From Clostridium sp. CAG:354_28_25 (lineage in GTDB: Bacteria; Bacillota; Clostridia; TANB77; CAG-508), in NCBI GenBank assembly GCA_001915925.1, contig MNRL01000010.1:6140-70139 (forward strand): 64,000 nucleotides of DNA. The letters run 5' to 3'. Made by a program: the position numbers and the translations under genes. Shown here piece by piece: positions 1 to 46,783 of the stretch. Each line of letters opens with the position of its first letter. Position 1 is the first letter of the stretch. The notes beneath the pieces are model-generated. The model was given only the letters and a program-made list of their open reading frames with translations. It searched no databases and was not told the origin of the DNA.

Positions 1-825
1 AAAGCAACTTCAACTTCTACAGGTTATACATTAAGTGGATTACCAGCAGGTAGATATATTGTTATATTTAAATATGATAGAAATATATATAAAATAACAA
101 ACTATAGACAAGAAGGAGTAAACGATACATTAAGTTCTAAAGCAATTGCTGGAACAGCTACTATAGGAGGAAATTTAGAATATGTTGGAATGACAGATGT
201 AATAGAAATAACAAATAGTAATATTAATTCTATAAATATGGGATTAATAAAATTAGGAAATTTTGATGTTTCTATAGAGAAATCGCTTAGCAGAATTAGA
301 ACAGTAAATCCAAAAGGTAAAGAACAAAATTATAGTTATGACAAAGGAACAAGAATAGGAAAATTAGAAGTTGCAGCTAGAAATTTAGTTGGAACAGAAG
401 TAATGGTAGAATACACTATCAAAATATCAAACTTAGGTGAATCTAAGGCATATATATCAGAAATTATAGATGAATTACCAGAAGATTTAGAATTTGATGC
501 ATCATCAAATAGCGGTTGGTATGAAGAAGGCGGAAAACTTCGTTATACAAATTTAAGTGAAATAGAAGTAGGACAAACAAGAGAAATTAAACTAATTGCA
601 ACAATAAAACTAACAAATGATAATTTAGGAATAATTAATAATGTTGCAACAATTAATGCAACAGATGGTAATAATATACAAGAAAGCAATACGCAGAATA
701 ATACATCAAATGCACAATTAATTATAGGAACAAGTACAGGTAGAATAGTATTAAATATCTTAGGAATGGTTGCTTTATTAGCAATAATTGGAGTAGGACT
801 ATTTATAATTAAGAAATATAGATAA
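1..825 (+). CDS. 3' part of a large surface protein gene (5' end lies outside the window): Cna B-like beta-sandwich end, DUF11-type repeat, C-terminal TM anchor with KKYR tail
   Basis: Frame 1 is open from nt 1 (KATSTSTGYTLSGLPAGRYIVIFKY...) into the listed 190..825 ORF. DUF11-like motif TEVMVEYTIKISNLGES...IDELPEDLEF. Terminal hydrophobic helix LNILGMVALLAIIGVGLFII followed by KKYR and a stop. Confidence 0.6.
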   Translation, partial: KATSTSTGYTLSGLPAGRYIVIFKYDRNIYKITNYRQEGVNDTLSSKAIAGTATIGGNLEYVGMTDVIEITNSNINSINMGLIKLGNFDVSIEKSLSRIRTVNPKGKEQNYSYDKGTRIGKLEVAARNLVGTEVMVEYTIKISNLGESKAYISEIIDELPEDLEFDASSNSGWYEEGGKLRYTNLSEIEVGQTREIKLIATIKLTNDNLGIINNVATINATDGNNIQESNTQNNTSNAQLIIGTSTGRIVLNILGMVALLAIIGVGLFIIKKYR

Positions 826-842
826 TAGAGGGGAGGGAGAAA

Positions 843-3800
843 ATGAAAGTAATAAAGAGAATACTAATATGTTTGCTCATATTATTAGCTTATTATTTAT
901 TCTTTGGTTCGGGAAAAACATATGCCTATTATGTTGGACAAACAGGACTTAATATAATATTTGATAATCTAATAGAGTATGATCCATCACAACCATATAA
1001 CTGTACACAACAAGGAGAAAAGCCACTATGTGGTTCTGCTTCTGGTGGTTCACATTACTATCAAGTTATTTCTAGAACATGGTTATATGAAATAAGTAGA
1101 ACAGGTTCTGGAGCGAGTATTTCTTCTAATACTGGAAAAGTTAGCTGGAAGAAATATAATGATAGTACATACCAAATAGGTGCGTACAAAGTAAATTACA
1201 CAGGAAGTGTAACAAAAGTTGTTATAAGTACAGACAAAGGAACAGTAACATTAAATAATAATTCGACATCTAGTAATGGAAATTATAGTGTAAGCAATAT
1301 AGTTAGTGGTCAAAATTTTTACATATATGTAAAAAAATCAACAGGGGTAAAAGAGATTAAAAGTGTAACAGTATATGTTAGTGGAACATTATACGTAGAA
1401 TCACAATATAGATATGAATTACATTGTTATGCAACTGGAGGTTCTCATGGTGGATATGGATGTTGGGATCCAAGCCAATGCCAGATATTAGAGTGTTGGG
1501 GAAGTGAAACAGATTCAGACACTGAAGAAGATCATGTTAAGCTTCCAGGAGCATTAGGAATAATAGAATTAAACATATATAAAAGAGATAAATATTTACC
1601 TGATGTAGGTGTACCTGGTGCTAAGTATGAATTGTGGAGTGATGGTAAAAAACAATATTCTGGAACAACAGATAGTAGTGGTCACTTACTATTAGACGAA
1701 GTATTAATAGGTGATTACATAATAAAAGAAGTATATGTGCCATATGGATTTGAAATTGAAGGATATGCAACTATGAATGGCAAAAAATTTACAGACCTTA
1801 CAAATATGAAGGTAAATTTAGATGATGATTCTACTATGTATGTATATAATGAAAGTTATATAGATATAGGTGGTATAGTATTCTTAGATGCTAAAACAGG
1901 AAAAGCAAATGGACCACCTAATGGATATTATGATAGCGGAGATAAAGTTGTAGAAGGAATAGAAGTAAAACTTTACCGAGCAGATAACAATCAAGAATTA
2001 GAAACTAGATATACAGATTCTAATGGAAAATACGAGTTTAAACATCGTACAAAAGCATATAATTATTATATAAGATTTAAATATAACGGACAGATTTATG
2101 AGGCAACAACGTATAATGAAACATCAGCAGCAGCAAAATTTAGATCATATGCAACAGAAGGATTAAATGAAAGACGTACATTTAATAACAAATTTACTCC
2201 AGTAAACGCAAATCATACAGTTCCAAAATGGACAGATACATCAAATAGTGCATTTAATATTTATGCATATACTGGTGCTGATGGACCAAACAATAAAAAG
2301 ACATATGGAAAAAATAATACGACAGACGAATTAAAAAATATCAATTTGGGTATTAAAGAAAGAGATATATTTGATTTAAACTTAAGAAAAGATTTAGTAA
2401 ATGTTGATGTATCAATAAATGGTAAGAGTCATACATATGATTATAATGGAGAGGGAGAAGATTTAGAAGTAACGATAAGAGGTACAGATATACCAGATTA
2501 TGAAAGACAACTAAGAAAAACAGATTTACAATATAAATCAGCTGCACAATATGATTCTGATCCAGATAAATTACAAGTATATGTAACATATAAAATACAG
2601 ATAAAGAACCAATCAGTTGGTAAAATTACGGGATATGTACTAGACTTAAATGACTATGCAGATACATCATATCAATTAGTAAATTCTTATGATGAAAATG
2701 GAAAAGCCATAAATTGGAGTTCTTCTGGTAGTGTATCTGGAAATGGTAAGACATATAATAAAATACATACAACAAGTTTATCAAATGTAGGAATAACAGA
2801 TAAAAAATGGATTTTTATGCAATATAAAGTTTCATATGACACCTTAAGAGAACTATTATCGAAAGGTGAAACAACCGAAGAAAATTATGCAGAAATTGCA
2901 GGATATAAGAACACATACACAGATACAAGAAAAGATACAGAGGGAAGGGTAATGGCAAATGCAGGAGAAAATGCAGGATTAATAGACTGCGACTCAACAC
3001 CAGACAACATGAACCCAACATCTTCTAATGTTCAAAACTTTGTAAAACAATCTAAGACAGATGCTTACCAAAGCCTAAAAGGAGACGAAAAATCAAAACG
3101 TAGTATGGCAGTATTTGAGGATGATGCAGATGTTGCACCTGGCTTAAAACTTATAAGAGATGATACACCAAGAACAATATCAGGTACTGTATTCGAGGAT
3201 TCACCACTTGAAGATAAATTAAATAATAATGAAAGAATTGGTGATGGACAATATACAAGTGGAGAAAATATTGTAAATAAAGTAAAAGTAGAATTACTTT
3301 GCCAAAACAATGAAGATGTTGATACTTTAAATAAAGTAGAGACAAGAAGTAATCAAGATGGAAGTTACACGTTATCAGGATATATTCCAGGAGATTATCT
3401 AATTAAATTTACTTATGGTGATAAGGAGTGCTTAATAAATCCTCAAAAGAATAATCAAATGTATACAGGTCAAGACTATAAATCTACAATTTATACAGAA
3501 GGAGATTACAAAGATTTATACTGGTATAATAATACCTCACCACGTAAGAATGATGCGGTTGATGATTATGAAGGTAGAAGACAAGTAGTAAATTCTTATA
3601 GTAAAGATTACAAATATGATATTGCAAAAGTGCTAAATGCAACAAGAACAAATAATTCTGATTTATTGGAAACGTTAGCAGAGAAAACGTATATGACTGC
3701 AAATACAGCTAAAATGGCGATGGAAATAGAGTACTTAAAAGATGAAAAAACATCATATAAAGTACAAAATGTGGATTTTGGTATTATAGAAAGACCAAGA

Positions 3801-4763
3801 ACAAAGATTGTACTAGGAAAAAATGTATCACATATTAAATTGACATCAACAGATGGTACAACGATATTTGATACAAACCAATCAACCTCAAACTTAACAT
3901 GGAAAGAAAACAAATATAATGATAGAGGAAATATGGTATCTACTGGATTAGTACAAGGTACTGTAGATGAAAACTTACTATATGGTTCAACTTTAAATGT
4001 ACGATATACTTTAGAGATAAGAAACCATAGTGAAGTAGACTATAACGAAAAATCATATTATGTTACAGGTGTAGTTAAAGATAGAAGTACAATGAATAGA
4101 ATTGAGCCTACTAGTGTAATTGAATATGTGCCAAATGTATTACAATATGATGTAGAACTTACAAAAGCAAATGGAAAGGTAACGATAAATAATACAACTG
4201 CAACAGGAAACAATTCTGTATCAGAATGGGGAATAGAAGGCAATAATGACTTGTGGCAAATTCTTGCAAGCAAGAGAGAAAATAAGAACCTTCCAGATTC
4301 TTATAGAGATACTTTATTAGAGGCAGGAGCATTTGACGAAGCTAATAAAACTATAGACGAAATTTTGGTTACAGATTTAAATGGTGTAAAAGCAAAATTA
4401 GCAAGAAATGATAAAATAAACTTAACTGATGTCTTAACTCTTACAAGAGTTATTGCAAGAACAGAAGATACATCAAATGCTGATGAAATACAGAATATAG
4501 CAGAAGTTATAAGATTAACTATAGATAATGGTAGAAGACCATATTATGAAGATACTTCTAATAAGGAAGTAGTAGAAATTCCAGGTAATACATATCCATC
4601 AACACTTAAAAATATAGAAGAGGTGGATACTGGACGAGCAGAAGTATTAACATTTGTTGTACCATTTGGTGCAAACAGACAGTTAACATTAATAGTTATT
4701 GCTATAGTAAGCTTAGGAATATTGGTAGCAGGAATTGTAGTAATAAAGAAGAAAGTTTTATAG
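843..4763 (+). CDS. Large secreted/anchored surface protein (1306 aa): signal peptide, several Cna B / SdrD-B-like (prealbumin-fold) domains, C-terminal TM anchor with KKKVL tail, no LPXTG
   Basis: RBS GAGGGGAGGGAG 5 nt upstream of the ATG. N-terminus MKVIKRILICLLILLAYYLFFGSGKTYA looks like a signal peptide. Cna B-like segments (PGAKYELWSDGKKQYSGTTDSSGHLLLDEVLIGDYIIKEVYVPYGFE; ISGTVFEDSPLEDK...SYTLSGYIPGDYLIKFTYG). C-terminal hydrophobic LTLIVIAIVSLGILVAGIVVI + KKKVL. Confidence 0.7.
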   Translation: MKVIKRILICLLILLAYYLFFGSGKTYAYYVGQTGLNIIFDNLIEYDPSQPYNCTQQGEKPLCGSASGGSHYYQVISRTWLYEISRTGSGASISSNTGKVSWKKYNDSTYQIGAYKVNYTGSVTKVVISTDKGTVTLNNNSTSSNGNYSVSNIVSGQNFYIYVKKSTGVKEIKSVTVYVSGTLYVESQYRYELHCYATGGSHGGYGCWDPSQCQILECWGSETDSDTEEDHVKLPGALGIIELNIYKRDKYLPDVGVPGAKYELWSDGKKQYSGTTDSSGHLLLDEVLIGDYIIKEVYVPYGFEIEGYATMNGKKFTDLTNMKVNLDDDSTMYVYNESYIDIGGIVFLDAKTGKANGPPNGYYDSGDKVVEGIEVKLYRADNNQELETRYTDSNGKYEFKHRTKAYNYYIRFKYNGQIYEATTYNETSAAAKFRSYATEGLNERRTFNNKFTPVNANHTVPKWTDTSNSAFNIYAYTGADGPNNKKTYGKNNTTDELKNINLGIKERDIFDLNLRKDLVNVDVSINGKSHTYDYNGEGEDLEVTIRGTDIPDYERQLRKTDLQYKSAAQYDSDPDKLQVYVTYKIQIKNQSVGKITGYVLDLNDYADTSYQLVNSYDENGKAINWSSSGSVSGNGKTYNKIHTTSLSNVGITDKKWIFMQYKVSYDTLRELLSKGETTEENYAEIAGYKNTYTDTRKDTEGRVMANAGENAGLIDCDSTPDNMNPTSSNVQNFVKQSKTDAYQSLKGDEKSKRSMAVFEDDADVAPGLKLIRDDTPRTISGTVFEDSPLEDKLNNNERIGDGQYTSGENIVNKVKVELLCQNNEDVDTLNKVETRSNQDGSYTLSGYIPGDYLIKFTYGDKECLINPQKNNQMYTGQDYKSTIYTEGDYKDLYWYNNTSPRKNDAVDDYEGRRQVVNSYSKDYKYDIAKVLNATRTNNSDLLETLAEKTYMTANTAKMAMEIEYLKDEKTSYKVQNVDFGIIERPRTKIVLGKNVSHIKLTSTDGTTIFDTNQSTSNLTWKENKYNDRGNMVSTGLVQGTVDENLLYGSTLNVRYTLEIRNHSEVDYNEKSYYVTGVVKDRSTMNRIEPTSVIEYVPNVLQYDVELTKANGKVTINNTTATGNNSVSEWGIEGNNDLWQILASKRENKNLPDSYRDTLLEAGAFDEANKTIDEILVTDLNGVKAKLARNDKINLTDVLTLTRVIARTEDTSNADEIQNIAEVIRLTIDNGRRPYYEDTSNKEVVEIPGNTYPSTLKNIEEVDTGRAEVLTFVVPFGANRQLTLIVIAIVSLGILVAGIVVIKKKVL

Positions 4764-9068: not shown

Positions 9069-11222
9069 ATGAAAAAAATAGAGCAAATTATAGCAGAAGA
9101 ATTAAATATTAAGGTACAACAAGTAGAAAACACGATAAAACTAATAGATGAAGGAAATACAATTCCTTTTATAGCAAGATATAGAAAAGAAGTAACGGGC
9201 GGGCTTTCTGATGAAGTTTTAAGAACTTTTGGAGAAAGACTAAACTATTTAAGAAATTTAGAGAAGAGAAAAGAAGAAGTTACAAATTCTATCGAAGAGC
9301 AAGGAAAGTTAACAGAAGAGATAGTAAAAGATTTAGAGAATGCTATTACTCTTGCAGAAGTAGAGGATATTTATAGACCATATAAACAAAAGAAGAAGAC
9401 AAGAGCAACTGTAGCAAAAGCAAAAGGGTTAGAACCACTTGCAGAAATTATTTTGGCTCAAGAAGAGACAAAAAATATACAAGAAATAGCAGCTGAATAT
9501 ATAAGCGAAGAAAAAGAAGTAAAAACTGTAGAAGAAGCAATACAAGGAGCATTAGATATTATTGCAGAAATGATATCTGATAACCCAGAATATAGAAAAT
9601 TAATTAAGCAAATAGTATATTCAAAAGGAATTATAAAGACTACTGCTACAAAACCAGAAGAAAAATCTGCTTACGAAATGTATTATGATTATAGTGAAAA
9701 TGTAAATAAAATACCAAGTCATAGGATTCTTGCAATAAATAGAGGAGAAAAAGAAGAATTTTTAAAAGTTAAAATAGAAAAAGAAGAAGATAAAATTTTA
9801 GAAAAAATAGAGAAAGATATAATAAAAGGTGAAAACCAGTTTACACAGTACTTAAAAGATACTATTCAAGATAGTTTTAAAAGATTAATAGAACCATCTA
9901 TCGATAGAGAGATAAGATCAGATTTAACGGAAAAAGCAGAAGAGCAAGCAATAAAAGTATTTGGTAAAAATGCAAAACAATTATTATTAGGTGCTCCAAT
10001 AAAAGGTATAACAGTTATGGGATTTGACCCAGCATATAGAACAGGTTGTAAAATCGCAATAATTGATGAAACAGGCAAGGTTTTAGATATTACAACAGTA
10101 TACCCAACAGAGCCACAAAATGACGTAGAGGGAGCGGAAAAAGAATTAGTAAGATTAATTAATAAAGATCATGTAGATATGATTGCAATAGGAAATGGGA
10201 CAGCTTCAAGGGAATCTGAAATGTTTGTATCAGAGATGATAAAAAAATGTGACCATGAAGTTTTATATACCATAGTAAGTGAAGCAGGAGCTTCTGTATA
10301 TTCTGCGTCAAAACTTGCAACAGAAGAATATCCAGACATAAATGTTTCTATAAGGGGTGCAATATCTATAGCTAGAAGACTTCAAGATCCTCTTGCAGAA
10401 TTCGTTAAAATTGATCCAAAATCTATAGGTGTAGGTCAATATCAACATGATGTAAATCAAAAGAAATTGGAAGAAAGCCTAGCAGGAGTTGTAGAAGATA
10501 GTGTTAATAAGGTAGGAGTAGATGTAAATACTGCAACACCATCACTGCTTTCATATGTTTCTGGAATAAATAAAACTATAGCTAAAAATATAGTAAAATA
10601 TAGGGACGAAAATGGAAAGTTAAAAACTAGAAAAGAATTACTTAAAGTTCCTAAATTAGGTAAAGTTGCATTTGAACAATGTGCAGGATTTATTAGAATT
10701 CCAGATGGAACTAATCCATTAGAAAATACAGCAGTACACCCTGAAAGCTACGACATAGCAGAAGAATTATTAAAGACTTTAGGTTATGGAACAGAAGATT
10801 TAAAAGATAAAGATAAATTAGTAGAGCTTAGAAAAAAATTAGGAAGTATAAATTTAACCGAAACAGCAAAAGCTTTAAATGTAGGAGAAATGACGCTAAA
10901 AGATATTATAGATGAATTATCAAAACCGGGAAGAGACCCAAGAGAAGATATGCCAAAGCCAATACTAAGGCAAGATGTTTTAAAATTCGAAGATCTAAAA
11001 GAAGGTATGATATTAACAGGTACTGTTAGAAATGTAATTGACTTTGGAGCATTTGTGGATATTGGTGTAAAACATGATGGACTTGTCCACATATCAGAGA
11101 TGAGTGAAAAATTTGTTAAAAATCCATCAGATATCGTGTCTGTTGGAGATATTGTAAAAGTAAAAGTTATCGGAATAGATAATGAAAGACAAAAAGTAAA
11201 ACTTTCTATGAAAATTGGATAA
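9069..11222 (+). CDS. tex: Transcription accessory protein Tex (YqgF/RuvC-like, HhH and C-terminal S1 domains)
   Basis: N-terminus IAEELNIKVQQVENTIKLIDEGNTIPFIARYRKEVTGGL is the hallmark Tex motif. 717 aa. C-terminal S1 domain (GMILTGTVRNVIDFGAFVDIGVKHDGLVHISE). Confidence 0.9.
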   Translation: MKKIEQIIAEELNIKVQQVENTIKLIDEGNTIPFIARYRKEVTGGLSDEVLRTFGERLNYLRNLEKRKEEVTNSIEEQGKLTEEIVKDLENAITLAEVEDIYRPYKQKKKTRATVAKAKGLEPLAEIILAQEETKNIQEIAAEYISEEKEVKTVEEAIQGALDIIAEMISDNPEYRKLIKQIVYSKGIIKTTATKPEEKSAYEMYYDYSENVNKIPSHRILAINRGEKEEFLKVKIEKEEDKILEKIEKDIIKGENQFTQYLKDTIQDSFKRLIEPSIDREIRSDLTEKAEEQAIKVFGKNAKQLLLGAPIKGITVMGFDPAYRTGCKIAIIDETGKVLDITTVYPTEPQNDVEGAEKELVRLINKDHVDMIAIGNGTASRESEMFVSEMIKKCDHEVLYTIVSEAGASVYSASKLATEEYPDINVSIRGAISIARRLQDPLAEFVKIDPKSIGVGQYQHDVNQKKLEESLAGVVEDSVNKVGVDVNTATPSLLSYVSGINKTIAKNIVKYRDENGKLKTRKELLKVPKLGKVAFEQCAGFIRIPDGTNPLENTAVHPESYDIAEELLKTLGYGTEDLKDKDKLVELRKKLGSINLTETAKALNVGEMTLKDIIDELSKPGRDPREDMPKPILRQDVLKFEDLKEGMILTGTVRNVIDFGAFVDIGVKHDGLVHISEMSEKFVKNPSDIVSVGDIVKVKVIGIDNERQKVKLSMKIG

Positions 11223-11278: not shown

Positions 11279-11306
11279 AACTATTTGATAAATTAAAAAC
11301 AAAATC

Positions 11307-11333
11307 GGGATTTAAGGACCGTCCCCAAATCCC
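11307..11333. repeat. Intergenic palindromic repeat unit (copy c, opposite orientation): GGGATTTAAGGACCGTCCCCAAATCCC
   Basis: Reverse-complement form of the family consensus, in the convergent tex / DUF975 intergenic region. Confidence 0.65.
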
Positions 11334-11359
11334 GAGAGACCAAAATTCCGAAGAAGAAT

Positions 11360-12292
11360 CTAATCTTTATTTTGGTCTAAATTTGGTATGTCTACTATTT
11401 CTGCTTTTACATCTTGAGAACCAGATTGTTCTTTTATTTCATTTGTTGTTGTATTTTCATCTGAGTTTTCTGTTGAATCTACAGTACCTTCGGCAACTGT
11501 AGCAGAACTATCTATACCAGCTCTATTTTCATAGAATACTATTGATGCAAACCCAATATATGGTGTTAATACAATAGTACCAGCGATTGCTGCTATCCAG
11601 CCAATAAAAGGTATTAAAGATACTACAACAGCTAGAGCAATCCATCCAATGAATGAAAGATATAGGCAGAATAAACGACCTTTATTTCCATCCATAAGTT
11701 CTTTACTTTTGTTAACACAATCAAGTGGTTTCATAGTTGGATTATCAATTGCAAGGTATATACCTAAACCATATGATAATGACTTCACGAAAAGCCATAT
11801 GTATGCAACAAGTACAACGATATATGCTATTATTGTTAAAGCACTAACACCAACTATAGCACCACCTAAAGTAGAAGTAGAAGTACTTATTCCTACTGCA
11901 AATGCAGTTGCAAAAGATGCGATAATAGAAACTACCATTATAATGATTGCAACTATTATTAATATTAGCGGAGCAATCATTTTTAAAAGTAATCTTCCTG
12001 TAAGGCACCAAGCTCTTTTAAAATTAGTAAAACCATCTTTAAAAAAATCAAAGTATCCTACACTTTCTCCTCTTTTTAGCTTCATCATAGTCATCATAAA
12101 ACCATATATTATTGGAATATCAATGACAATAGCAGCTATAGAAACTAAGAATCCTAAAAAAGGAATAGCAGAAAGTAATCCTACTAAAAATGAGTATCCT
12201 AAAAATATTAAGGTAATTAAAACCACAACTCCCCATTTACCTTTTAAAGATTCTCTGGCTTGCTTTCTTGTTTCTGAAGCAGTTAAAACCAT
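11360..12292 (-). CDS. DUF975-family polytopic membrane protein with acidic C-terminal tail
   Basis: N-terminus ...KQARESLKGKWGVVVLITLIFLGYSF... matches the DUF975 pattern (LKGNWG). Six or more hydrophobic helices. RBS AAGGAGGGG on the minus strand. Confidence 0.55.
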   Translation of the reverse strand: MVLTASETRKQARESLKGKWGVVVLITLIFLGYSFLVGLLSAIPFLGFLVSIAAIVIDIPIIYGFMMTMMKLKRGESVGYFDFFKDGFTNFKRAWCLTGRLLLKMIAPLILIIVAIIIMVVSIIASFATAFAVGISTSTSTLGGAIVGVSALTIIAYIVVLVAYIWLFVKSLSYGLGIYLAIDNPTMKPLDCVNKSKELMDGNKGRLFCLYLSFIGWIALAVVVSLIPFIGWIAAIAGTIVLTPYIGFASIVFYENRAGIDSSATVAEGTVDSTENSDENTTTNEIKEQSGSQDVKAEIVDIPNLDQNKD

Positions 12293-12336: not shown

Positions 12337-13365
12337 TTAGTACTTTTCTTGTATTTGTTTAATAGAATTAAAATCATTATCTAAAATATCTAGGAAAGCT
12401 ATACCTATTTCTGGGTCAAACTGAGAACCCAAATTTTCTAATATTTCAGATTTTACAACGTCCATTGGTAAAGAATCTCTGTAACTTCTTTTTGAAGTCA
12501 TAGCATCAAAACTATCAACTATAGAAGTGATTCTAGCAAGATAAGGGATATTTGTTCCTGCTAATCTTTCTGGATATCCATTTCCATCAAATCTTTCGTG
12601 ATGATATTTTATGATATCTAGAATATTTTTAAACATGTCAGCATTTTCTAAAATGTTATATCCAATTACGGGATGTTCTTTAATTTTTGTATATTCCTCA
12701 TCTGTTAATTTAGATTCTTTTAGAAGGATGCTGTCTGGAATACCAATTTTTCCTATATCATGAAAAAGACCGCCAATTTTTAGCTTTTCGATATCATCGT
12801 CAGGCAAATTAAGTTTTTTTCCTAATAGAACTGCGTATTCAGAAACTCTGTCAGAATGACCTTTAGTATAAGGATCTTTTGCTTCAACAGTGTGTCTTAA
12901 TATTTCTATACTGTCTATGTAAGCTTTTTCTAAATTGTCATTCATTCTAGTTATTGTTCGCATTTGATTTACAGATTTTAATCCAGATTCTATTAATAGT
13001 AATAATTGGTCAAATTTATCACTTTTTTCGCAATATCCTTGGATATCAAGTTCGTGAATAGTTTCTAATGGTGGAGCCAAATCTTTATGACCAGTTAAAA
13101 GAAGAATATATAGATCTTTATTAAATTTTCTGATTTCTTCAACAACTTTGTCACCATGAATTGGGTCCATAATAAAATCTAGTACCATTAAATCAAAATG
13201 TTCTGTTTTTACGCGATTTATAGCTTCTATAGGATCTGTTATGCCAACAAAATCATAGCCAGATCTTTTCATAAATATAGATAATGAATCTAAAATTCCT
13301 TGTTCATCATCTACAGCGATTATTTTAAAATCAGCACTTTTGGATGTAACTTGATTCTTTCTCAT
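12337..13365 (-). CDS. Response regulator with N-terminal receiver domain and C-terminal HD-GYP (c-di-GMP phosphodiesterase-type) domain
   Basis: REC: KIIAVDDEQGILDSL...DLMVLDFIMDPIHGD...LTGH. HD-GYP: HSDRVSEYA...HDIGKIGIPDSIL...HHERFDGNGYP. Confidence 0.85.
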   Translation of the reverse strand: MRKNQVTSKSADFKIIAVDDEQGILDSLSIFMKRSGYDFVGITDPIEAINRVKTEHFDLMVLDFIMDPIHGDKVVEEIRKFNKDLYILLLTGHKDLAPPLETIHELDIQGYCEKSDKFDQLLLLIESGLKSVNQMRTITRMNDNLEKAYIDSIEILRHTVEAKDPYTKGHSDRVSEYAVLLGKKLNLPDDDIEKLKIGGLFHDIGKIGIPDSILLKESKLTDEEYTKIKEHPVIGYNILENADMFKNILDIIKYHHERFDGNGYPERLAGTNIPYLARITSIVDSFDAMTSKRSYRDSLPMDVVKSEILENLGSQFDPEIGIAFLDILDNDFNSIKQIQEKY

Positions 13366-13425
13366 AATAACAGACCTCCTAATATAGAAATTATATAAAT
13401 AAAAAGTTATAAAAGCAAGAAAAAA

Positions 13426-13480
13426 GTCAAAAAAAATACAAAAAAAGCGAAGGTAAAATTTGCCAATTTATCTTCGCTTC
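13426..13480 (-). terminator. Possible intra-operon terminator/attenuator between the histidine kinase and response regulator genes (minus strand)
   Basis: On the minus strand AGCGAAG-loop-CTTCGCT followed by a long T-run (the A-run 13426-13445 on the plus strand). Confidence 0.45.
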
Positions 13481-13492
13481 TAATATCTTTAA

Positions 13493-15559
13493 TTATTTAT
13501 CAGTTTTATTAGAATTATCAATTTTTGGTAAAGGAATAATAATTGAAAATGTAGTACCAGTTTTATCTGAATCACATTTGATATCACCATTAAAATGAGC
13601 TTTAATAGTAGAATATGATACGAATAAACCAAGTCCTGTTCCATTTTTTCCCTTTGTGGTAATCATCTCTTTAAATAGTTTTTCTTGAACCTCTTTAGGA
13701 ATACCTGGTCCATAATCCTTTACTTGTATTATTATGTTATTATTTTTTACATTTAATATTAAATCTATTTTTTGATTTGGTTTGCCATTATATGATTGAA
13801 TAGCATTTGAAATCATATTATTTATTACTTGTACCAAGCAGTTTATATCACCATTAATATAAGTACTTGAAGGTACATTATTTATTAAATTAAGTGAAAC
13901 TAAAGCATTTTTTAATTCGTGTTTCATTAATATATCAATATTTTTTAGTAATTCATCCATATAAAAATGAATATTACTTGTAGAAGAGAAATTAACAGCC
14001 TGACCTTTAACTGCGGTTATAACATCAGACATATATTCTGTATAAGTTTTAATTTTTTCTATCCAAGAAGTCATATCTTTTGCAATATCATGATGATCTT
14101 GTTCTGTTACATCTTTATCTCCAATAGATTTATCATATTCGGTAACTAAATCTGTAAGCCCTTCTGCAGCACCAGATATAGACATTATAGGTGTTTTTAA
14201 GTTATGAGCTATACCTCCAATTAATTGTCCTAAAGATGCCAAACGTTCTCTTTCTATAAGCATGTTTTGATTATTATGTATTTGATTTATATTATTCTTT
14301 GTTAGATCCTGAATCTCATTAAATGCATTTACTAAGTCACCAATTTCATCATTAGAAACAACTGGTAATCTAGCACTATGGTCGATATTTCTATTTTCTA
14401 CAATTTTTAGTAATGCATCAGAAACCCTTTTTATTTCATTTGCGATATAATTTGCGAAATATCTTAATAAAATAATATTAACTATAAATAATACAGCAAA
14501 AATTGATAACAATCCAATTAAAATAGTATTAGACACTAAATTATAACGTATACCTATAGTCCATGTTTTTCCGTTTATAGTAACACTTCTAAATACCCCT
14601 TGAGAATCATCACCATAAAAGTCATAGGTTCTATTCTTTTCAGGTTGTGTAGATGATAAATCATTCATATATTTTGTAAAGAATATTGATAATTCTTCAC
14701 CATTAGAAGTTGTTATATTGCCATCTGGAGCAATAATAAAATATGAATCTACCTTAGCTTTTTTATATTCAATTTTTGAAAGTGCTTCAGATAAAACTTC
14801 TAATGGATCTTCTTCTGTTTGAGTAGGTAAATCTAATGAATTTAATTCCTGATTATAAAAATCATAAGTTAAATTACCCGTTTCTTTTATTATAGAAGAA
14901 TAACCAGATAAAGCAATTAAAAGTGCAGTAACTATAAACATAGGTATTGTTACGATAAAAATAACATTTTTTATACTTGATCTTTTTACATATTTATTAA
15001 AATTACTATCTATATTAGAATAGCCAGAAACTTCATGATATATATATACTAAAATGTTCTGAAAAGTCTTTTTAGAGAATATATATGAAATACTTGCTAT
15101 TAATGTTAACATAGATAAGAAGAGCAAGCATACTTTTAAAGTAATAAACAATTCACCTTGTAATAAACTAAAAGTTATTGCAATCATAATAACAGGAACT
15201 ATTATTTGTACTATATATATTAAATTAGGTATTCTGGATATTGTTTTAGAAAGTTTATAGTATAATTTAGTAGCATTTTTTTTAGGCACTTGCAATAGTT
15301 CAGCTCTTATTTTATTTGCCTTTCTTAAACTATGTATTAATATAATATTTTCCATTAATAAACTACATAATACAATCATTATATATTGCTGTGTATAAGT
15401 TAGTCCATTAATAACTATTTGAAATTCATTATCTATAGAATTTGGTGGGTAACATAAAAATGTAGGCACCAATTTATAGAAAAATAATGAAACAATTATA
15501 CAGGCAAGGTTATATACTAAAATCAGTTTAGCCCAATTTTTGTCCAAAGTTTTTTTCAT
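13493..15559 (-). CDS. Membrane sensor histidine kinase (multi-TM N-terminal region, extracytoplasmic sensor segment, HAMP-like linker, HisKA and HATPase_c domains)
   Basis: H-box LASLGQLIGGIAHNLKTPIMSISG, N-box LVQVINNMISNAIQ, G-box VKDYGPGIP / GTGLGL. At least 8 predicted TM helices. Start overlaps the NRPS stop by 32 nt. Confidence 0.85.
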   Translation of the reverse strand: MKKTLDKNWAKLILVYNLACIIVSLFFYKLVPTFLCYPPNSIDNEFQIVINGLTYTQQYIMIVLCSLLMENIILIHSLRKANKIRAELLQVPKKNATKLYYKLSKTISRIPNLIYIVQIIVPVIMIAITFSLLQGELFITLKVCLLFLSMLTLIASISYIFSKKTFQNILVYIYHEVSGYSNIDSNFNKYVKRSSIKNVIFIVTIPMFIVTALLIALSGYSSIIKETGNLTYDFYNQELNSLDLPTQTEEDPLEVLSEALSKIEYKKAKVDSYFIIAPDGNITTSNGEELSIFFTKYMNDLSSTQPEKNRTYDFYGDDSQGVFRSVTINGKTWTIGIRYNLVSNTILIGLLSIFAVLFIVNIILLRYFANYIANEIKRVSDALLKIVENRNIDHSARLPVVSNDEIGDLVNAFNEIQDLTKNNINQIHNNQNMLIERERLASLGQLIGGIAHNLKTPIMSISGAAEGLTDLVTEYDKSIGDKDVTEQDHHDIAKDMTSWIEKIKTYTEYMSDVITAVKGQAVNFSSTSNIHFYMDELLKNIDILMKHELKNALVSLNLINNVPSSTYINGDINCLVQVINNMISNAIQSYNGKPNQKIDLILNVKNNNIIIQVKDYGPGIPKEVQEKLFKEMITTKGKNGTGLGLFVSYSTIKAHFNGDIKCDSDKTGTTFSIIIPLPKIDNSNKTDK

Positions 15560-18500
15560 TTAAATTTTCCTCCAATCCGTGTTTAAAATAATTAGTATTT
15601 ATATTAGACCAATTAAAATTAATTTCTTTTAATACCTTAGTTGTATAAGGACTAGATACTTTGATATTGCTTGCTTCGTGTTTACTAGTTAATAATTTAT
15701 ATAAGTAAGAAGATAAATTAATATCTTTTGTGGAAGCTTCTAAATCTTGTAATGAATTATCAGTAGTAAATTGTATGTTAAAACCTAAATTATTTAATAG
15801 GTTAACAATTTCTTGTAAAGTTAATTCATTTTGATTATATATATGATATACATTATATTTATTATCATTTTGTAGAATAGATACTATTAAACTAGCACAT
15901 TCATCAACAGGACTTATATTAAATGTTTTATCTTTTAACTCTAGAGGAATTTTTTTTGCTTTTATAATAAATTGTATTAAATTAAAAAATAAGTTTTCCT
16001 CTAAGTTGTGTTGGAATATACCATCATAACTTCTCCAAGTAATATTTCCTAAACGGAATATTGTTATAGGAAGACCTTTTTGGTTTTCTTCTAATAATAG
16101 CTTTTCTGCCTCAAATTTAGTTTTTATATAAATATTTTCACTAATATCTTGGTTAACAAATAAATCCTTTTCTGTAAAAGCGCATGAACCATTAGGATCA
16201 TTACTGCCTGCAACTGAAAGCGTAGAAATATGTACTAATTGGCAGTTTGGAATATCTTTACAGACTGCTATTAAATTTTTTACACTTAATACATTTGTTT
16301 TTTCAAAAACAGCATAATCTCCTAGATGTTTAACAGTTGCTGCAGCATTAATTATACATTGTATATTTGTACACAACTCATTATATGCATTATAAATAAG
16401 ACCTAAGTGTTCTTTAGTAAAGTCACCATTAACAACTATAATTCTATTATTAAAATAATGATCTAATTTATCTTTAAAGTAGTATTGTAGTCTTTCTTTT
16501 AATCTGTTAGTTGAACTTTCTAAAGATTCTCCTCTTACTAAACAATATATCGTATAATTTGTTTTTTCTAATAATTCATAAAGAATATGAGCACCTAAAA
16601 ATCCTGTAGCACCAGTTAATAAGATATTACCATTTATATAACTTGGAGAGCTTTTTTCTATTTGAAAAGTTTCGTAATCTACTGTATTAATTGTACTAGA
16701 AATAGGTGATTGTGTATTTAGCGCATATTTTTCTAATAATTTAATTGTAGGATATCTATAAAAATCTTGTGCAGATAATTTTATATCATATTTTGCAGCT
16801 TCTACAGAAATCTTTATAGAATCTAGTGAATCTCCTCCTAAAGCAAAGAAATTATCTTTTATTCCAATCTTAGATTTTCCTAAAACCTTTTCCCATATAG
16901 AACACAATTTTTTTTCTATATCGTTATTAGGAGCATCATAATTTTCTACATCTAAATCATTTATATGTTCTAATAATTTTTTCCTATCTATCTTTCCATT
17001 TGTATTTAAAGGAAATTCATCTAAAAACTCAAACTGATTTGGAATCATATAATGAGGCAACTTATTAACTAGTTTATTTCTAAATGATTCTTGATCTATT
17101 ATTGATGAATCTATAATTACAAATGCAACTAGAGTAGAATTATCAGAAGATTCTTTATTTAATATAATTGTACAATTTTTTACACCGTGAATATTTTTTA
17201 TCGTATTTTCAATTTCTCCTAAATCAATTCTATAACCTCTATATTTTATTTGATTATCATTTCTACCCACAAACATTATAGAGCCATCTGGAAGCCATTT
17301 TGCAGAATCTCCAGTTCTATATATTCTATTTTTTAAATCAAAAGATGCTTTTGTTTTTTCTGGATTGTTTAAATACCCATTACCAACACATTCACCTTGT
17401 ACATAGATTTCGCCAACTTTACCAATTGGAACTAACCTTTTTAATTTATCTAAAATAAATATTTTAGAGTTACCAATTGGACTTCCAATAGGTGTTATGT
17501 TATTAGGTGGCAGAGTATTTTTAAATTTATACATTGTACAACAAATAGTAGTTTCAGATGGTCCATAACCATTTACAATTTTCATGTTAGGATTTAGGTT
17601 ATAAAAATTAGATAGAGTAGAAGCTTTAATAGGTTCCACACCAACCAATATTTTATTTAATGCTAATTTAGGATATTTAGCTAATTCCTCATATATAGAA
17701 TGCAACATAGCAGGTGGGAAGTATGCAAATGTAATATTATTAACCGAGATATATTTAGCAAGTTCCACGATGCTACTATTATTTAAATCTTTATATAAGT
17801 GTAGATTGCCACCAAAAGTAAGCGCTGTGAAAATTTCTGCCATACTAACATCAAAACAAATATTAGTTACAGATAAAAATTGGTCATCAGCTTTAATTGA
17901 ATCATCTAAATAATGCTTAAAAGAGTATACAAAATTAATAATATTATTATGTGATTGCATAGTTCCTTTTGGCTTTCCTGTAGAACCAGAAGTGTAAATG
18001 ATATAGGCATTGTCAGTTGGTAATACTTTAGGAAATTTAGCAATAGCTGGGTAATCCTTTAATTTATTAATGTATAATCTTAGACATTTTATATTTAAGC
18101 TTTCAAAATATTGTTCAGTAATTAATATTTTGCTATTACTATTTTCTAAGATATATTCAATTCGTTCATTAGGATAATCAGGGTAAATTGCTAAGAAAGC
18201 AGCTCCAGCTTTTAAAATTCCTAATAATGAACAAATAAGGTTAATATCTTTATTTTTAAATAAAACTGCTACACAATCTCCTTTTTCTACGCCATTTTCG
18301 ATAAGGTTAGTAGCAATCTTAGTACTATTAGCAATTAATTCTTTATAAGTTATATGTTCGCCATTATATGTAACTGCTGTATTATTAGGATACTTACTTG
18401 CAACAGCTTCAATTAACTCATGAATTCCTATGTTTTTAGGATGAGAGATATTAGAATTATTAAATTTATTTATTATAAGTTCTTCTTCTTTCTCGCAGAT

Positions 18501-19805
18501 AATACTTATATCTTTTAGTAAGATAGAAGGATTCTCTAATACATGTAGAGTCATATTCATAATTCTTGAATGAATTTTATCTATTTGTTCTTCCGAAAAT
18601 TTAGAAATTTTATAATCATAATAAATGTTAATTATTCCAGTATCATCTAAATCATAAAAATGTATTTGTAAGGTATCAGAACAATTATTATTAAAAGACC
18701 AGTTTGTATGAAATTTTATATCAGCTACAGTATTATCTATTCTAGCATTTTGGTAAGATATGGCTAAATCATATAAATTATATGAGATATTATATTTGGT
18801 TTTTAAATCTTCTAGTAATGTAGAATATGAATATTTTTGATGTCTAAAGAATTTCATTTGGTTAGTTAAAACTTCTCTTAAGAAGTCTGTAAAAGTCTCT
18901 TCATAATTCATTTTCATAAAAAAGGCTTGCGTACTTACAAATATTCCACAGGTATTTTTTTCTTTAAAATTGGTTCTATTTAAGATAGGTGTTCCAATTG
19001 TAGAAAAATCATTATTATTAATGCGTGCTAAATATAGTGAATATATAGCCATAAAAAATGTATAAAGAGAACAGTTATGTTCTTTGCAAAAAGCATCCAA
19101 TTTTGAATACAATTCTTTATCTAGAATATATATTTTTCTTTTTGCAGTTGTATCTATAATTTTTTCTTTTTGGTCGGAAATTAAAGATGGCTCTGGCTCA
19201 GAGTCAAAGAAAGTATTCCAAAATTCTTTATCTTTTTGGAATCTTGGAGTATGTAAATAATCTTGTTCACTTTTTGCAAAGTCTAGATAGGAATTATTAG
19301 CAGAATCATCAATAATTTCACCAGCTATTAATTTTGAATAAATATTCATTACTTGGTCTACGAATAAACTCATAGTCCAAGCATCACAAATAATATGGTG
19401 AAAAGTTACGATTAATCCCCCTGTATTATCTTCAAACTTGAAAAGAGTAACCCAAAATAGTTTAGAATCAAAAAAATTAAATTTTTTATTAACAGCCTGT
19501 AAGCTAAGGTCTTCTAATTCTTGTTTATCTTTAATAAAAACTCGTCTTATAGTAAAAGGTTCATATGGAGTTATGTACTGCTTTGGTTTGTTATTTTCCA
19601 TATGAATACGAATTCTAATTGCGTCATTCTTTTTTACAAAAATATTTAAAGCTTTTTCTAAAAAATCTAAATTTACCGGTTCATCAATAATAATGTTACC
19701 ACCAATTAGATTAACACTACTACCAGATGCATATTCTTCGGTTAAGTAAATAGATTTTTGTGGAATAGTTAAATCATAAAATTTAAAATTATTCATAAAA
19801 ATCAC
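15528..19805 (-). CDS. Single-module non-ribosomal peptide synthetase, domain order C-A-T-R (condensation, adenylation, thiolation, terminal NAD(P)H-dependent thioester reductase)
   Basis: C domain HHIICDAWTM (HHxxxD). A-domain cores LAYIIYTSGSTGKPKG, FDVSMAEIF, NGYGPSETT, GELYVQGECVGNGYLN, YRTGD, GRNDNQIKYRGYRIDLGEIE. PCP FFALGGDSL. R domain LTGATGFLGAHILYELL (GxxGxxG) and YIKTK (YxxxK). Confidence 0.85.
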   Translation of the reverse strand: MIFMNNFKFYDLTIPQKSIYLTEEYASGSSVNLIGGNIIIDEPVNLDFLEKALNIFVKKNDAIRIRIHMENNKPKQYITPYEPFTIRRVFIKDKQELEDLSLQAVNKKFNFFDSKLFWVTLFKFEDNTGGLIVTFHHIICDAWTMSLFVDQVMNIYSKLIAGEIIDDSANNSYLDFAKSEQDYLHTPRFQKDKEFWNTFFDSEPEPSLISDQKEKIIDTTAKRKIYILDKELYSKLDAFCKEHNCSLYTFFMAIYSLYLARINNNDFSTIGTPILNRTNFKEKNTCGIFVSTQAFFMKMNYEETFTDFLREVLTNQMKFFRHQKYSYSTLLEDLKTKYNISYNLYDLAISYQNARIDNTVADIKFHTNWSFNNNCSDTLQIHFYDLDDTGIINIYYDYKISKFSEEQIDKIHSRIMNMTLHVLENPSILLKDISIICEKEEELIINKFNNSNISHPKNIGIHELIEAVASKYPNNTAVTYNGEHITYKELIANSTKIATNLIENGVEKGDCVAVLFKNKDINLICSLLGILKAGAAFLAIYPDYPNERIEYILENSNSKILITEQYFESLNIKCLRLYINKLKDYPAIAKFPKVLPTDNAYIIYTSGSTGKPKGTMQSHNNIINFVYSFKHYLDDSIKADDQFLSVTNICFDVSMAEIFTALTFGGNLHLYKDLNNSSIVELAKYISVNNITFAYFPPAMLHSIYEELAKYPKLALNKILVGVEPIKASTLSNFYNLNPNMKIVNGYGPSETTICCTMYKFKNTLPPNNITPIGSPIGNSKIFILDKLKRLVPIGKVGEIYVQGECVGNGYLNNPEKTKASFDLKNRIYRTGDSAKWLPDGSIMFVGRNDNQIKYRGYRIDLGEIENTIKNIHGVKNCTIILNKESSDNSTLVAFVIIDSSIIDQESFRNKLVNKLPHYMIPNQFEFLDEFPLNTNGKIDRKKLLEHINDLDVENYDAPNNDIEKKLCSIWEKVLGKSKIGIKDNFFALGGDSLDSIKISVEAAKYDIKLSAQDFYRYPTIKLLEKYALNTQSPISSTINTVDYETFQIEKSSPSYINGNILLTGATGFLGAHILYELLEKTNYTIYCLVRGESLESSTNRLKERLQYYFKDKLDHYFNNRIIVVNGDFTKEHLGLIYNAYNELCTNIQCIINAAATVKHLGDYAVFEKTNVLSVKNLIAVCKDIPNCQLVHISTLSVAGSNDPNGSCAFTEKDLFVNQDISENIYIKTKFEAEKLLLEENQKGLPITIFRLGNITWRSYDGIFQHNLEENLFFNLIQFIIKAKKIPLELKDKTFNISPVDECASLIVSILQNDNKYNVYHIYNQNELTLQEIVNLLNNLGFNIQFTTDNSLQDLEASTKDINLSSYLYKLLTSKHEASNIKVSSPYTTKVLKEINFNWSNINTNYFKHGLEENLNEKNFGQKLG

Positions 19806-19920
19806 CTATTTTAATCTTGAAAAAATTATATACTTAAAGAAACTAAAAATCAACAAAAATATTGAACAATTTAACCATTTGTTATAGAATAAAGGCATCC
19901 TAAGAGATGTTGGGGGAAGA

Positions 19921-40231: not shown

Positions 40232-40281
40232 GGAATAAGGGACGTTCCTAAAATCCCGGGTAAACCGGGATTTTAGGAGTC
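40231..40281. repeat. Two adjacent palindromic repeat units (e1 40231-40257 GGGAATAAGGGACGTTCCTAAAATCCC; e2 40266-40281 GGGATTTTAGGAGTCC, truncated) forming a larger inverted structure around CCCGGGTAAACCGGG
   Basis: e1 starts on the last base of the adhesin stop codon. Confidence 0.65.
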
Positions 40282-40328
40282 CTTTTTGCGTTTAAAGAAA
40301 GCTACATATATTTGGCAGGTTCTATTGT

Positions 40329-40355
40329 GGGAAAAAAGGAACGTCCCCAAATCCC
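40329..40355. repeat. Palindromic repeat unit e3: GGGAAAAAAGGAACGTCCCCAAATCCC
   Basis: Nearly identical to unit f2 at 50673-50699 (GGGAAAAAAGGAATGTTCCCAAATCCC). Confidence 0.65.
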
Positions 40356-40514
40356 ACTAACCTCGAATTTTATAAAAAATTATTGTAAACTTAACAAAAA
40401 TGTAATATAATTGTAATGTGGACTAAAAAAATTGACGGAATATAGCAAAAACTGTATCCGTAAGCAGGTTCGAGCCACAAAAAAATAACCATAAAAAACT
40501 GCTATTTTTTGCTA

Positions 40515-40542
40515 TTGACTATTATTTAGAATATAGTAAAAT
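40515..40542 (+). promoter_or_regulatory. Putative promoter of the second adhesin gene (TTGACT-16 nt-TAAAAT)
   Basis: ttgact 40515-40520, taaaat 40537-40542. Confidence 0.4.
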
Positions 40543-40583
40543 ACACTTAGCAGTATTATGAGAAAAAGGATGGTAACGAAACT

Positions 40584-44860: not shown

Positions 44861-45703
44861 ATGGAAGAAAATAAAACATTAGAAGAAGTATGTACTGAAT
44901 ATAAGCTTTCAGAAGACGAACGCAACGAAATAGGAAACAAAATAAATGCGATTATGTTAGCAGGAAAGAAAACAAGTGAGCAACCTATAGCAATAATAGA
45001 TATTGCACCTCCAGGTTCTGGAAAAACAGGTTTAAACGGATATGCCTGTGCACAGTTTAAGGATAATAATGCTGTTGTCATTAATAGTGATGAATTAAAA
45101 CCATTTCATCCTAGAATAGATGAATTAGCAAAAAAATATCCAGAATATTATACAAAAGTAACTAATCAAGAAAGTAATTTTTGGACAGACAATTTATTTG
45201 ATGTTGCAGTAGCTAGTAGGTATAATGTTATTTTTGAGGGAACAGGTAGAAACTTAAAACTATTAACAAAGATGATGAGCAAAATGCATGGGTACAAAAT
45301 AGTTGTAAGAGGAATGGCCGTTAATGAACTAAATTGCTTGATGTCAATAATTGAAAGATATGAAGGACAAGTAGAACAAAAAGGCTGGGGAAGGTTGGTA
45401 ATGGAAGATCATTTTTATAAAGCATATGATGAAATGCTAGAAAATATCCAAGCGATTGAAGAATCTGGAATGGCAGATATTGTTGAAGTTTATACAAGAA
45501 GTGACAATCCAAGTAGACCACTAAGAATATATAGTAGTAGAAATAGAGAATTTAAAGATGCAAGAACAGCTGTAATTGTTGGAAGAGAAAGAGACAGAAA
45601 AAGTGCAGAACAATATTATGAAGAAAAATTTAGTAAAAGAGGAACAAAACCAACAAAGTTTCCAGAAGAAAAAGAACTTCTAGAAAAAATAACAGAAATA
45701 TGA
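44861..45703 (+). CDS. Zeta-toxin family P-loop kinase (PezT/zeta-like; the family phosphorylates UDP-GlcNAc)
   Basis: Walker A IAPPGSGKTGL. Blocks VINSDELKPFHP (zeta VIDNDTFKQQHP), NVIFEGTGRN (NLVIEGTGRT), GYKIVVRGMAVNELNCLMSIIERYE ([25 protein letters not shown]). Confidence 0.75.
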   Translation: MEENKTLEEVCTEYKLSEDERNEIGNKINAIMLAGKKTSEQPIAIIDIAPPGSGKTGLNGYACAQFKDNNAVVINSDELKPFHPRIDELAKKYPEYYTKVTNQESNFWTDNLFDVAVASRYNVIFEGTGRNLKLLTKMMSKMHGYKIVVRGMAVNELNCLMSIIERYEGQVEQKGWGRLVMEDHFYKAYDEMLENIQAIEESGMADIVEVYTRSDNPSRPLRIYSSRNREFKDARTAVIVGRERDRKSAEQYYEEKFSKRGTKPTKFPEEKELLEKITEI

Positions 45704-45744
45704 GAACAAGGAATACAATTATAAATTTGAATAGAGGGATGATT

Positions 45745-46767: not shown

Positions 46768-46783
46768 TAAGGAGGAAGATAGA

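Follow-up and report, generated by a model that had tools for sequence, protein, structure and literature searches.

A 64,000-nucleotide stretch of chromosomal DNA from Clostridium sp. CAG:354_28_25 (GTDB lineage TANB77/CAG-508; contig MNRL01000010.1, positions 6,140 to 70,139), here called the window and of ~28% GC, carries four minus-strand genes between 11.3 and 19.8 kb. They encode a nonribosomal peptide synthetase (NRPS), a sensor histidine kinase, a response regulator with REC and HD-GYP domains, and a DUF975 membrane protein. Comparison with relatives suggests that the first three constitute a three-part chemical signalling module, with a signal synthase and its cognate receptor feeding a conserved HD-GYP output, a reading whose chances are judged a little better than even. 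The evidence that carries it is the joint replacement of the NRPS and the sensor half of the kinase, both between species and within one, on a kinase core and regulator that follow the species background.

The replacement within a species emerged from a search with the exact response regulator protein of the window, which occurs in 1473 collection blocks. The matches listed comprise two locus types, with ~10 contigs of type A, that of the window (its locus is 99.68% identical to that of one relative, L092), and ~11 of type B. Over more than 11 kb of flank, A and B share 97.3-99.2% nucleotide identity and encode an identical regulator protein, whereas the cassettes in between are non-homologous, the two NRPSs having 36% amino acid identity. 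In type A a fatty-acyl-CoA ligase-like gene (FACL) is present but frameshifted, the NRPS has 1422 amino acids (aa), the kinase has 688, the overlap of their genes is 32 nt and the specificity code of the adenylation domain is DVAYLGGICK; in type B FACL is absent, the NRPS has 1425 aa, the kinase 671, the overlap is 20 nt and the code is DLTKIGEVGK. Type B flanks match the window at 97.3-98.5% identity up to position 21641 and again from 14368. As judged from these flanks, the NRPS-sensor polymorphism is intraspecific, with alternative alleles segregating within one species in the manner of pherotypes.

Between species the same boundary recurs. A search with the kinase, restricted to one genome per species, yielded 80 loci, all from metagenome-assembled genomes of uncultured gut Clostridia (of humans, rabbits, chickens and ruminants), and one of them, L036, is from Clostridium sp. 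CAG:273, to which the host lineage is related. The genus CAG-273 is assigned by GTDB to TANB77/CAG-508 (PMC13508870), TANB77 being an uncultured order with reduced genomes that has been linked to immunotherapy response (PMC11680825). Compared with the window, the kinase core (aa 433-678) of relatives is 55-72% identical and the response regulator 63-70%, the NRPS 30-36%, and the kinase sensor (aa 1-365) 24-34% in what are here called L-type relatives and undetectable in the S-type. The L-type kinases (~660-690 aa), whose N-terminal region has no Pfam family and was modelled for the window as six transmembrane (TM) helices plus a PDC-like domain and HAMP, are paired with a one-module NRPS, and the S-type kinases (~600 aa, HisKA_7TM plus PAS) with a two-module NRPS, the single exception being L030. 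Both types turn up mixed among closely related loci, as with L025 and L048, which share Tex and response regulator at 92% each.

In sliding comparison with L008, identity is ~30-35% over the NRPS and kinase aa 1-400, and then 68-92%. L005 and L008 have regulators and kinase cores each 97% identical with NRPSs at 36% and sensors at 34%, and for L010 and L013 the corresponding values are 96%, 94%, 34% and 33%. The right-hand nucleotide breakpoints are sharp in three comparisons and fall within kinase aa ~388-397 (~394, ~388 and, in the window, ~397). Mantel tests relate NRPS divergence to that of the sensor (r = 0.63 for the L-type, n = 26; 0.61 for the S-type, n = 23; p = 0.0002 each) far more than to that of the core (0.10, not significant, and 0.26, p = 0.003, respectively) or the regulator (-0.04, not significant, and 0.21, p = 0.008), and core and regulator correlate with each other (0.56 and 0.80). 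NRPS and sensor are both at least 60% identical in 28 L-type pairs and both lower in 297, with no discordant pair. A diverged NRPS accompanies a kinase core at least 80% identical in 20 L-type pairs; pairs in general are not independent, and at least 4 or 5 separate swaps were counted. On these comparisons the NRPS together with kinase residues 1 to ~397 is a replaceable cassette, and the kinase core and regulator go with the genomic background of the species, so that, as in pherotype systems, signal-production genes and sensor vary jointly and core and regulator are conserved. The first-pass annotation had proposed that the kinase could sense the NRPS product; joint replacement, even within a species, gives that idea comparative support, short of proof.

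The arrangement itself is widespread. The reductase end of the NRPS gene abuts the kinase gene in 75/75 loci with at least 1.5 kb of upstream DNA, and in ~65 species-level loci NRPS stop and kinase start are separated by -52 to +72 nt, most values falling between -14 and +24; three outliers (+372 to +703 nt) each occur at a broken open reading frame (ORF). These tight junctions persist even though the NRPSs are so diverged, which supports co-transcription of the two genes, as the annotation had predicted, and the overlap or tight spacing points to an NRPS-kinase operon. In the window the NRPS gene ends with TAA at 15530..15528 and the kinase gene begins with ATG at 15559..15557, with 32 nt (15528..15559) in common, and an overlap of this length is retained in close relatives (L001, L002, L006, L007, L083, L092). 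The overlap had been claimed at the outset, and a downstream kinase start, which would abolish it, is contradicted by a ribosome-binding site, GGAGG at 15573..15569 (minus strand), 9 nt 5′ of the ATG and inside NRPS coding sequence, by conservation of the kinase N-terminus from residue 1 in independently called homologues (685-689 aa), and by the loss of the first TM helix that starting at the next methionine would entail.

The response regulator gene is no more than 500 nt from the kinase gene in 39/75 loci and 0.5-10 kb away in 24; the larger gaps hold a second kinase gene (six loci) or insertions, for example of TraG-like or DnaJ-like genes. In L081 the whole FACL/NRPS-kinase block is reversed in orientation with respect to the regulator, DUF975 and Tex genes. 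Two further genomic contexts have the trio. In L088/L089 (42% GC) the NRPS and kinase genes, overlapping by 4 nt, and a REC-DUF3369-HD-GYP regulator gene that abuts the kinase are flanked by mutS2 and bipA; in REC the regulator shares 70% identity with that of the window, and the phosphoacceptor helix motif of the kinase matches. In L086/L087 (24% GC), where flanks are variable, the regulator of the NRPS-kinase-regulator trio (9992..10957) has a homologous REC domain and a C-terminal domain of ~190 aa without a Pfam match, and as this output domain differs, the module can carry an alternative output. The inversion and the recurrence in these two contexts indicate that the triad is more than inherited synteny, and the NRPS-kinase adjacency is, on this comparative evidence, not due to chance. 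Conservation in relatives, which the annotation had proposed checking, is thus seen in full for NRPS and kinase and in part for the regulator, and a dedicated two-component system with HD-GYP output gains backing from the proximity of the regulator, from catalytic residues preserved in 60/60 orthologues and from the triad in the 42% GC organism. That the adjacency is fortuitous or an annotation artefact, with a mis-called kinase start and the regulator as an unrelated neighbour, would accord with the variable distance of the regulator and the hairpin that lies between it and the kinase gene. Given the ribosome-binding site and conserved N-terminus, the unbroken 75/75 adjacency, the recurrence of the triad elsewhere, the 42% GC lineage included, and the invariance of residues in the phosphoacceptor helix and REC, such an artefact is very improbable indeed.

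About a dozen relatives have 4-8 kb inserted on the opposite strand between the kinase and regulator genes (10841..15359 in L072, 10855..18490 in L050). The inserts carry a TraG/VirD4-like ATPase, a J-domain protein and an HAD-like protein, and look like the remnant of a mobile element. In L025, L031 (11995..13824), L032, L048, L053 and L068 it is a second kinase gene (HisKA_7TM plus PAS, ~600-630 aa) that lies ~12 nt from the regulator gene; its product has the same phosphoacceptor helix motif as the NRPS-linked kinase, and two sensors may converge on one regulator in these six loci.

As to the kinase, AlphaFold models aa 1-400 (pLDDT 85.6, pTM 0.78) with five long TM helices first, then a compact alpha/beta domain at aa ~242-343 and a sixth TM helix that leads into HAMP. 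The Foldseek matches of the sensor are weak (best E = 0.015) and consistently to extracellular domains of PDC/Cache/PAS type (4zr7, PctC, AbfS, CzcS), which hints at a PDC/Cache-like extracytoplasmic domain. Among 79 kinases, L-type and S-type alike, there is almost no variation in the helix for dimerization and histidine phosphotransfer (DHp), ERLASLGQ[LM]IGGIAHNLKTPI. The protein finishes at its HATPase domain, with neither a REC nor an HPt domain. The multi-TM half might instead help to export the product, dock the pathway at the membrane or protect the cell from a reactive aldehyde, and have co-evolved with the NRPS for that reason: the cassette has no transporter gene by Pfam, five or seven TM helices precede the kinase, and NRPS and kinase are translationally coupled. 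The fold is, however, the standard sensor layout of TM bundle, PDC-like domain, TM helix, HAMP and DHp, the S-type belongs to a HisKA_7TM plus PAS sensor family, and neither Pfam nor Foldseek gave a transporter-like match for the sensor half, all of which leaves such a role improbable.

The NRPS has a single module of condensation, adenylation, carrier and thioester reductase domains (C-A-T-R). Its carrier domain holds GGDSL, and the reductase (NAD_binding_4, E = 2.4e-53) has a GATGFLG motif; a carrier followed by a terminal NAD(P)H-dependent thioester reductase is the hallmark of reductive release, although the score with TIGR01746, 208 bits, just misses the cutoff of 213. The best NCBIfam matches are to AusA module 2 (654 bits, E = 5e-196, cutoff 2500) and MxcG (530 bits, E = 9e-159, cutoff 2300), both far below the equivalog cutoffs, and the enzyme is not classed as an orthologue of either. 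To our knowledge its code, DVAYLGGICK, matches no assigned one. Codes vary among cassettes: L008 has DILQLGVIWK, the L013 group DLTKIGEVGK and L020 DFWNLGVIFK, which we take to be Gly-like, Asn-like and Thr-like, respectively.

In the response regulator the REC residues D19, D20, D63 and T91 are invariant in 60/60 orthologues, in keeping with a receiver that has its phospho-acceptor Asp and acidic pocket, and so are the HD-GYP residues H170, H202-D203, H231, H255-H256-E257, G263-Y264-P265 and D284. The signature reads HHERFDGNGYP, so that the HHExxDGxGYP residues which had looked intact are so, with all metal ligands present. The closest solved structures are PmGH (4mcw, E = 2.7e-41), a c-di-GMP phosphodiesterase, and V-cGAP3 (5z7c, E = 1.9e-37), which is cGAMP-specific. 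The residue aligned to E185 of PmGH, presumably a third-metal ligand there, is Tyr, as in V-cGAP3; the HD-GYP domain may be of the binuclear subtype. The NCBIfam model for NosR-family c-di-GMP phosphodiesterase response regulators scores 197 bits, below its cutoff of 400. From its conserved residues the regulator is predicted to hydrolyse a cyclic dinucleotide, c-di-GMP or 3′3′-cGAMP. The DUF975 gene is next to that for the regulator in many relatives, even where the NRPS-kinase block is inverted (L081); it is probably co-transcribed with the regulator gene, or its product may be a downstream partner.

Between the kinase and regulator genes is a hairpin followed by a T-tract, to which the first-pass annotation gave a role in attenuating regulator expression. 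The hairpin is real, with a minimum free energy of -16.6 kcal/mol (z = -3.95; 0/200 shuffles fold as well). It was revealed by folding and missed by a consensus terminator scan, since that scan permits loops of at most 3-8 bases. In L006 the stem is longer than that of the window, and a hairpin-U tract is present behind the kinase gene in ~25/39 relatives, the sequences being analogous but non-homologous. Because the regulator gene is kilobases away or inverted in many relatives, regulator and DUF975 genes (44-nt gap) are read as a separate unit, and the predicted structure is probably the intrinsic terminator of the NRPS-kinase operon; the proposed role fits less well, attenuation of regulator expression through read-through being possible. 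Promoter calls are weak, as a scan of this AT-rich DNA gave 59 sites against 69 in shuffled sequence. TTGCTT-17-TATAAT in the spacer, a candidate regulator promoter, matches the -35 consensus at 3/6 positions and was not relied on.

Several considerations weigh against a signalling module. The support is comparative. The regulator gene is displaced by 0.5-8 kb in 24/75 loci and outside the 10-kb flank in 12/75, and in the six loci with a second kinase the NRPS-linked one may not be the only or main partner of the regulator. FACL, a possible supplier of the acyl donor, is frameshifted in the window. A search for GG[DE]EF in ORFs of at least 150 aa, covering the window plus 82 loci (1.6 Mb), produced one match only, not GGDEF-like, and no GGDEF, EAL or PilZ domain turned up when the remaining ORFs of the window were scanned with Pfam; the sample being mostly the same locus, these negatives, like that for a c-di-GMP riboswitch, are uninformative on the whole genome. 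The Rfam scan of the whole 64-kb window gave zero families at the gathering threshold, with no tRNA, riboswitch or leader, and so no c-di-GMP riboswitch or leader ties regulator output to the NRPS. For the products of related gut NRPSs, the reported role is inhibition of host proteases and not signalling (PMC12282076). Co-replacement could also be passive linkage, since a diverged NRPS and sensor share no homology between cassettes and recombination cannot separate them.

Passive linkage of an outward-acting metabolite gene and an unrelated sensor is the main rival to a signalling module. The operon would be conserved, but the kinase would sense an unrelated cue (stress on the envelope, for example, or a molecule from the host or the diet), the product, for instance a protease-inhibiting peptide aldehyde, would act outward, and NRPS and sensor would be held together by adjacency between two conserved anchors for recombination, HtrA/FACL and, at the opposite end, the kinase core. 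In its favour, PMC12282076 and PMC8210680 credit related gut NRPS clusters with the synthesis of peptide aldehydes that inhibit cathepsins, an HtrA protease gene adjoins most loci, and the breakpoints sit where homology resumes, as homologous recombination alone would give. What it leaves unexplained is the extent of sensor divergence (24-34%) beside a core encoded by the same gene at 55-97%, the switch of sensor architecture along with NRPS module number, and the NRPS-kinase pairing in three unrelated genomic contexts with different flanks. Replacement of the whole kinase or a break at the NRPS/kinase junction is, moreover, seen in 0/325 L-type pairs. Passive linkage is accordingly rated unlikely, though a serious contender.

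If the locus is indeed a signalling module, the C-A-T-R synthetase, probably N-acylating by way of its N-terminal C domain, would release an N-acyl amino aldehyde or a compound derived from it, and the two-module NRPSs of relatives would give a dipeptide version. The kinase made from the same mRNA would detect this compound through its six-TM plus PDC-like sensor, and the conserved core would phosphorylate the REC-HD-GYP regulator, with altered hydrolysis of a cyclic dinucleotide (c-di-GMP or 3′3′-cGAMP) as the outcome. Synthase and sensor would be exchanged jointly as specificity alleles, with transmitter and output staying with the host genome. The structure of the product, its binding by the kinase, phosphotransfer from kinase to regulator, the phosphodiesterase activity and its substrate, and the physiology are what we infer for this module. 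A broader proposal is that there is a new class of cell-cell signalling in uncultured gut Clostridia (TANB77/CAG-508 and some others), in which NRPS-derived N-acyl amino or dipeptide aldehydes are strain-specific pheromones, with co-inherited sensors on a conserved kinase/HD-GYP chassis and multiple pherotypes per species maintained in the human gut. It is offered tentatively, its chances being somewhat short of even.

Among known systems, the locus resembles the Rpf genes in wiring: RpfB is an acyl-CoA ligase, RpfF a crotonase-fold signal synthase, RpfC a hybrid sensor kinase with REC and HPt domains and RpfG a REC-HD-GYP protein. As in this diffusible signal factor (DSF) pathway, the genes for a putative signal synthase, a membrane-bound sensor kinase and a REC-HD-GYP regulator lie together, and the regulator would act by hydrolysing c-di-GMP and not by binding DNA; a fatty-acyl-CoA ligase gene is beside the synthase in both, and the regulator has the architecture of RpfG with all motifs intact. 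The synthase here is, however, an NRPS and not a crotonase-fold protein like RpfF, the kinase is a plain one (6TM-PDC-HAMP-DHp-CA, CA being the catalytic ATP-binding domain) that, unlike RpfC, lacks REC and HPt, the host is an anaerobic Gram-positive bacterium of the gut, and synthase and sensor occur as interchangeable alleles, for which we know of no description in Rpf. The Pfam-scanned ORFs included no crotonase-family gene. Having no RpfF and no hybrid kinase, the locus does not belong with Rpf.

Similar in population structure are agr (AgrBDCA), ComCDE and ComQXPA, pherotype systems of Firmicutes whose ribosomal peptide signals are processed by AgrB or ComQ and whose regulators are LytTR or other DNA-binding proteins. 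Shared with them are a hypervariable block that combines genes for making the signal with the kinase's sensor half, its joining to a conserved core and regulator with the breakpoint inside the kinase gene, and alternative alleles in one species. What sets the present locus apart is that its signal would be non-ribosomal, from an NRPS with reductive release, and its regulator an HD-GYP enzyme and not a LytTR or other DNA-binding factor. The pherotypes of ComQXPA have been reviewed (PMC6334282).

On the side of chemistry, terminal thioester-reductase release is common to this enzyme, S. aureus AusA, myxochelin MxcG (also C-A-T-R) and a family of gut-Clostridia NRPSs, with which the one- or two-module architecture and the origin in gut Clostridia are shared as well. 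According to the summaries in PMC12282076 and PMC8210680 that family (Guo et al. 2017) comprises 47 clusters and makes peptide aldehydes or pyrazinones, and a linked kinase or HD-GYP regulator goes unmentioned in those summaries. In the literature searchable here, which did not extend to the primary paper on the gut NRPS family, there is no description of an NRPS-kinase-HD-GYP arrangement. Small NRPS or NRPS-like enzymes that act on one amino acid to yield an autoregulatory signal, as proposed here, do have precedent. The Pseudomonas Pvf signal depends on PvfC, an A-T-R enzyme. Valdiazen, an NRPS-derived diffusible signal from the ham cluster with HamD, is described along with the Rpf/DSF pathway of Xanthomonas in PMC12838280. 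Both differ from the present locus in that their clusters are not known to have a genetically fused sensor kinase (the receptors being unknown or different) or cassette polymorphism, and that the output is not HD-GYP. In CqsA-CqsS, LqsA-LqsS-LqsR and Ralstonia PhcB-PhcS-PhcR the gene for an autoinducer synthase adjoins those for the cognate sensor kinase and response regulator, and Phc synthase and sensor variants co-vary. There, in contrast, the synthase chemistry is that of an aminotransferase or methyltransferase, and kinase architecture and output also differ.

Gut reductive-release NRPS clusters are abundant and expressed in human stool, and host-protease inhibitors have been taken to be their products (PMC12282076). 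The conserved, allele-matched sensor kinase suggests that at least this NRPS branch makes self-recognized signals, which, if true, reframes the purpose of the metabolites. The host clade is reported to be uncultured (PMC11680825), and a defined signal/receptor pair with natural specificity alleles has the attraction of being testable without culturing, by heterologous NRPS expression and a reconstituted kinase. The breakpoint at the HAMP/DHp junction also provides a design rule taken from nature, as it marks the point at which one sensor can replace another while the transmitter stays the same.

Features of the locus in the 64-kb window (positions from the first nucleotide of the window; domain ranges in aa)
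Feature	Coordinates	Strand	Evidence and remarks
NRPS gene	15528..19805	-	ORF with GTG start; likely true start ATG at 19796 (1422 aa), AGGTGA ahead of it; Pfam Condensation 8-444, AMP-binding 466-812, PP-binding 966-1027, NAD_binding_4 (thioester reductase) 1063-1307
Histidine kinase gene	13493..15559	-	688 aa; Pfam HAMP 368-417, HisKA 443-481, HATPase_c 570-678
Kinase, variable sensor half (aa 1 to ~397)	14369..15559	-	five TM helices, PDC/Cache-like domain, sixth TM helix, part of HAMP
Kinase, conserved core	13493..14368	-	DHp with H452 in GGIAHNLKTP, plus HATPase
Hairpin and T-tract, kinase-regulator spacer	13429..13481	-	inner stem 13481..13443, T-tract to 13429
Response regulator gene	12337..13365	-	342 aa; Pfam Response_reg (REC) 15-124 (E = 2.2e-15), HD_5 (HD-GYP) 156-320 (E = 6.7e-38); ribosome-binding site AGGAGG
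DUF975 membrane protein gene	11360..12292	-	multi-pass; Pfam; 44 nt 3′ of the regulator gene
Terminator-like hairpin and T-tract past DUF975	11305..11335	-	14 pairs, 6 of them G-C
tex	9069..11222		Pfam; on the far side from FACL and htrA
Promoter-like TTGATT-17-TATAAT	19825..19853	-	just 5′ of the NRPS gene; 10/12 matches; candidate only
FACL, split	19925..21634	+	divergent; main ORF of 514 aa from 20090; Pfam, NCBIfam
htrA (HtrA-type serine protease)	21702..22835	+	divergent
Replaceable cassette A (FACL, NRPS, kinase sensor half)	14369..21640		~7.3 kb; type B cassette of ~5.5 kb in its place

The lesion in FACL is an insertion of one nucleotide near 20035 that gives a 39-aa N-terminal fragment and the 514-aa ORF. 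The frameshift is common to the window, L006, L001 and five independent metagenome contigs, and absent from L083, L002 and L005; given this distribution it is genuine, a lesion particular to the lineage or a restart, and no artefact of assembly. The HtrA gene flanks the cassette in most TANB77-like loci and not in the other two genomic contexts. HtrA was considered as a target of the aldehyde or a functional partner and set aside, being absent from both L086/L087 and L088/L089; its adjacency to a putative protease-inhibitor synthetase gene is judged to reflect synteny rather than function.

Elsewhere in the window, which also encodes rpoB and rpoC, an ORF of 1817 aa at 50942..56395 (plus strand) has no Pfam match at E <= 1e-8. 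At 44861..47677 a gene with a zeta-toxin domain is followed by an ORF without a Pfam match and a PHP-domain gene, and this may be a toxin-antitoxin or defence island. Very large surface proteins of adhesin or pilin type, with TED, SpaA, SdrD_B and DUF11 domains, are encoded at 190..4763 and 35456..44396; a pilin-like protein of TANB77 has been linked to immunotherapy response (PMC11680825).

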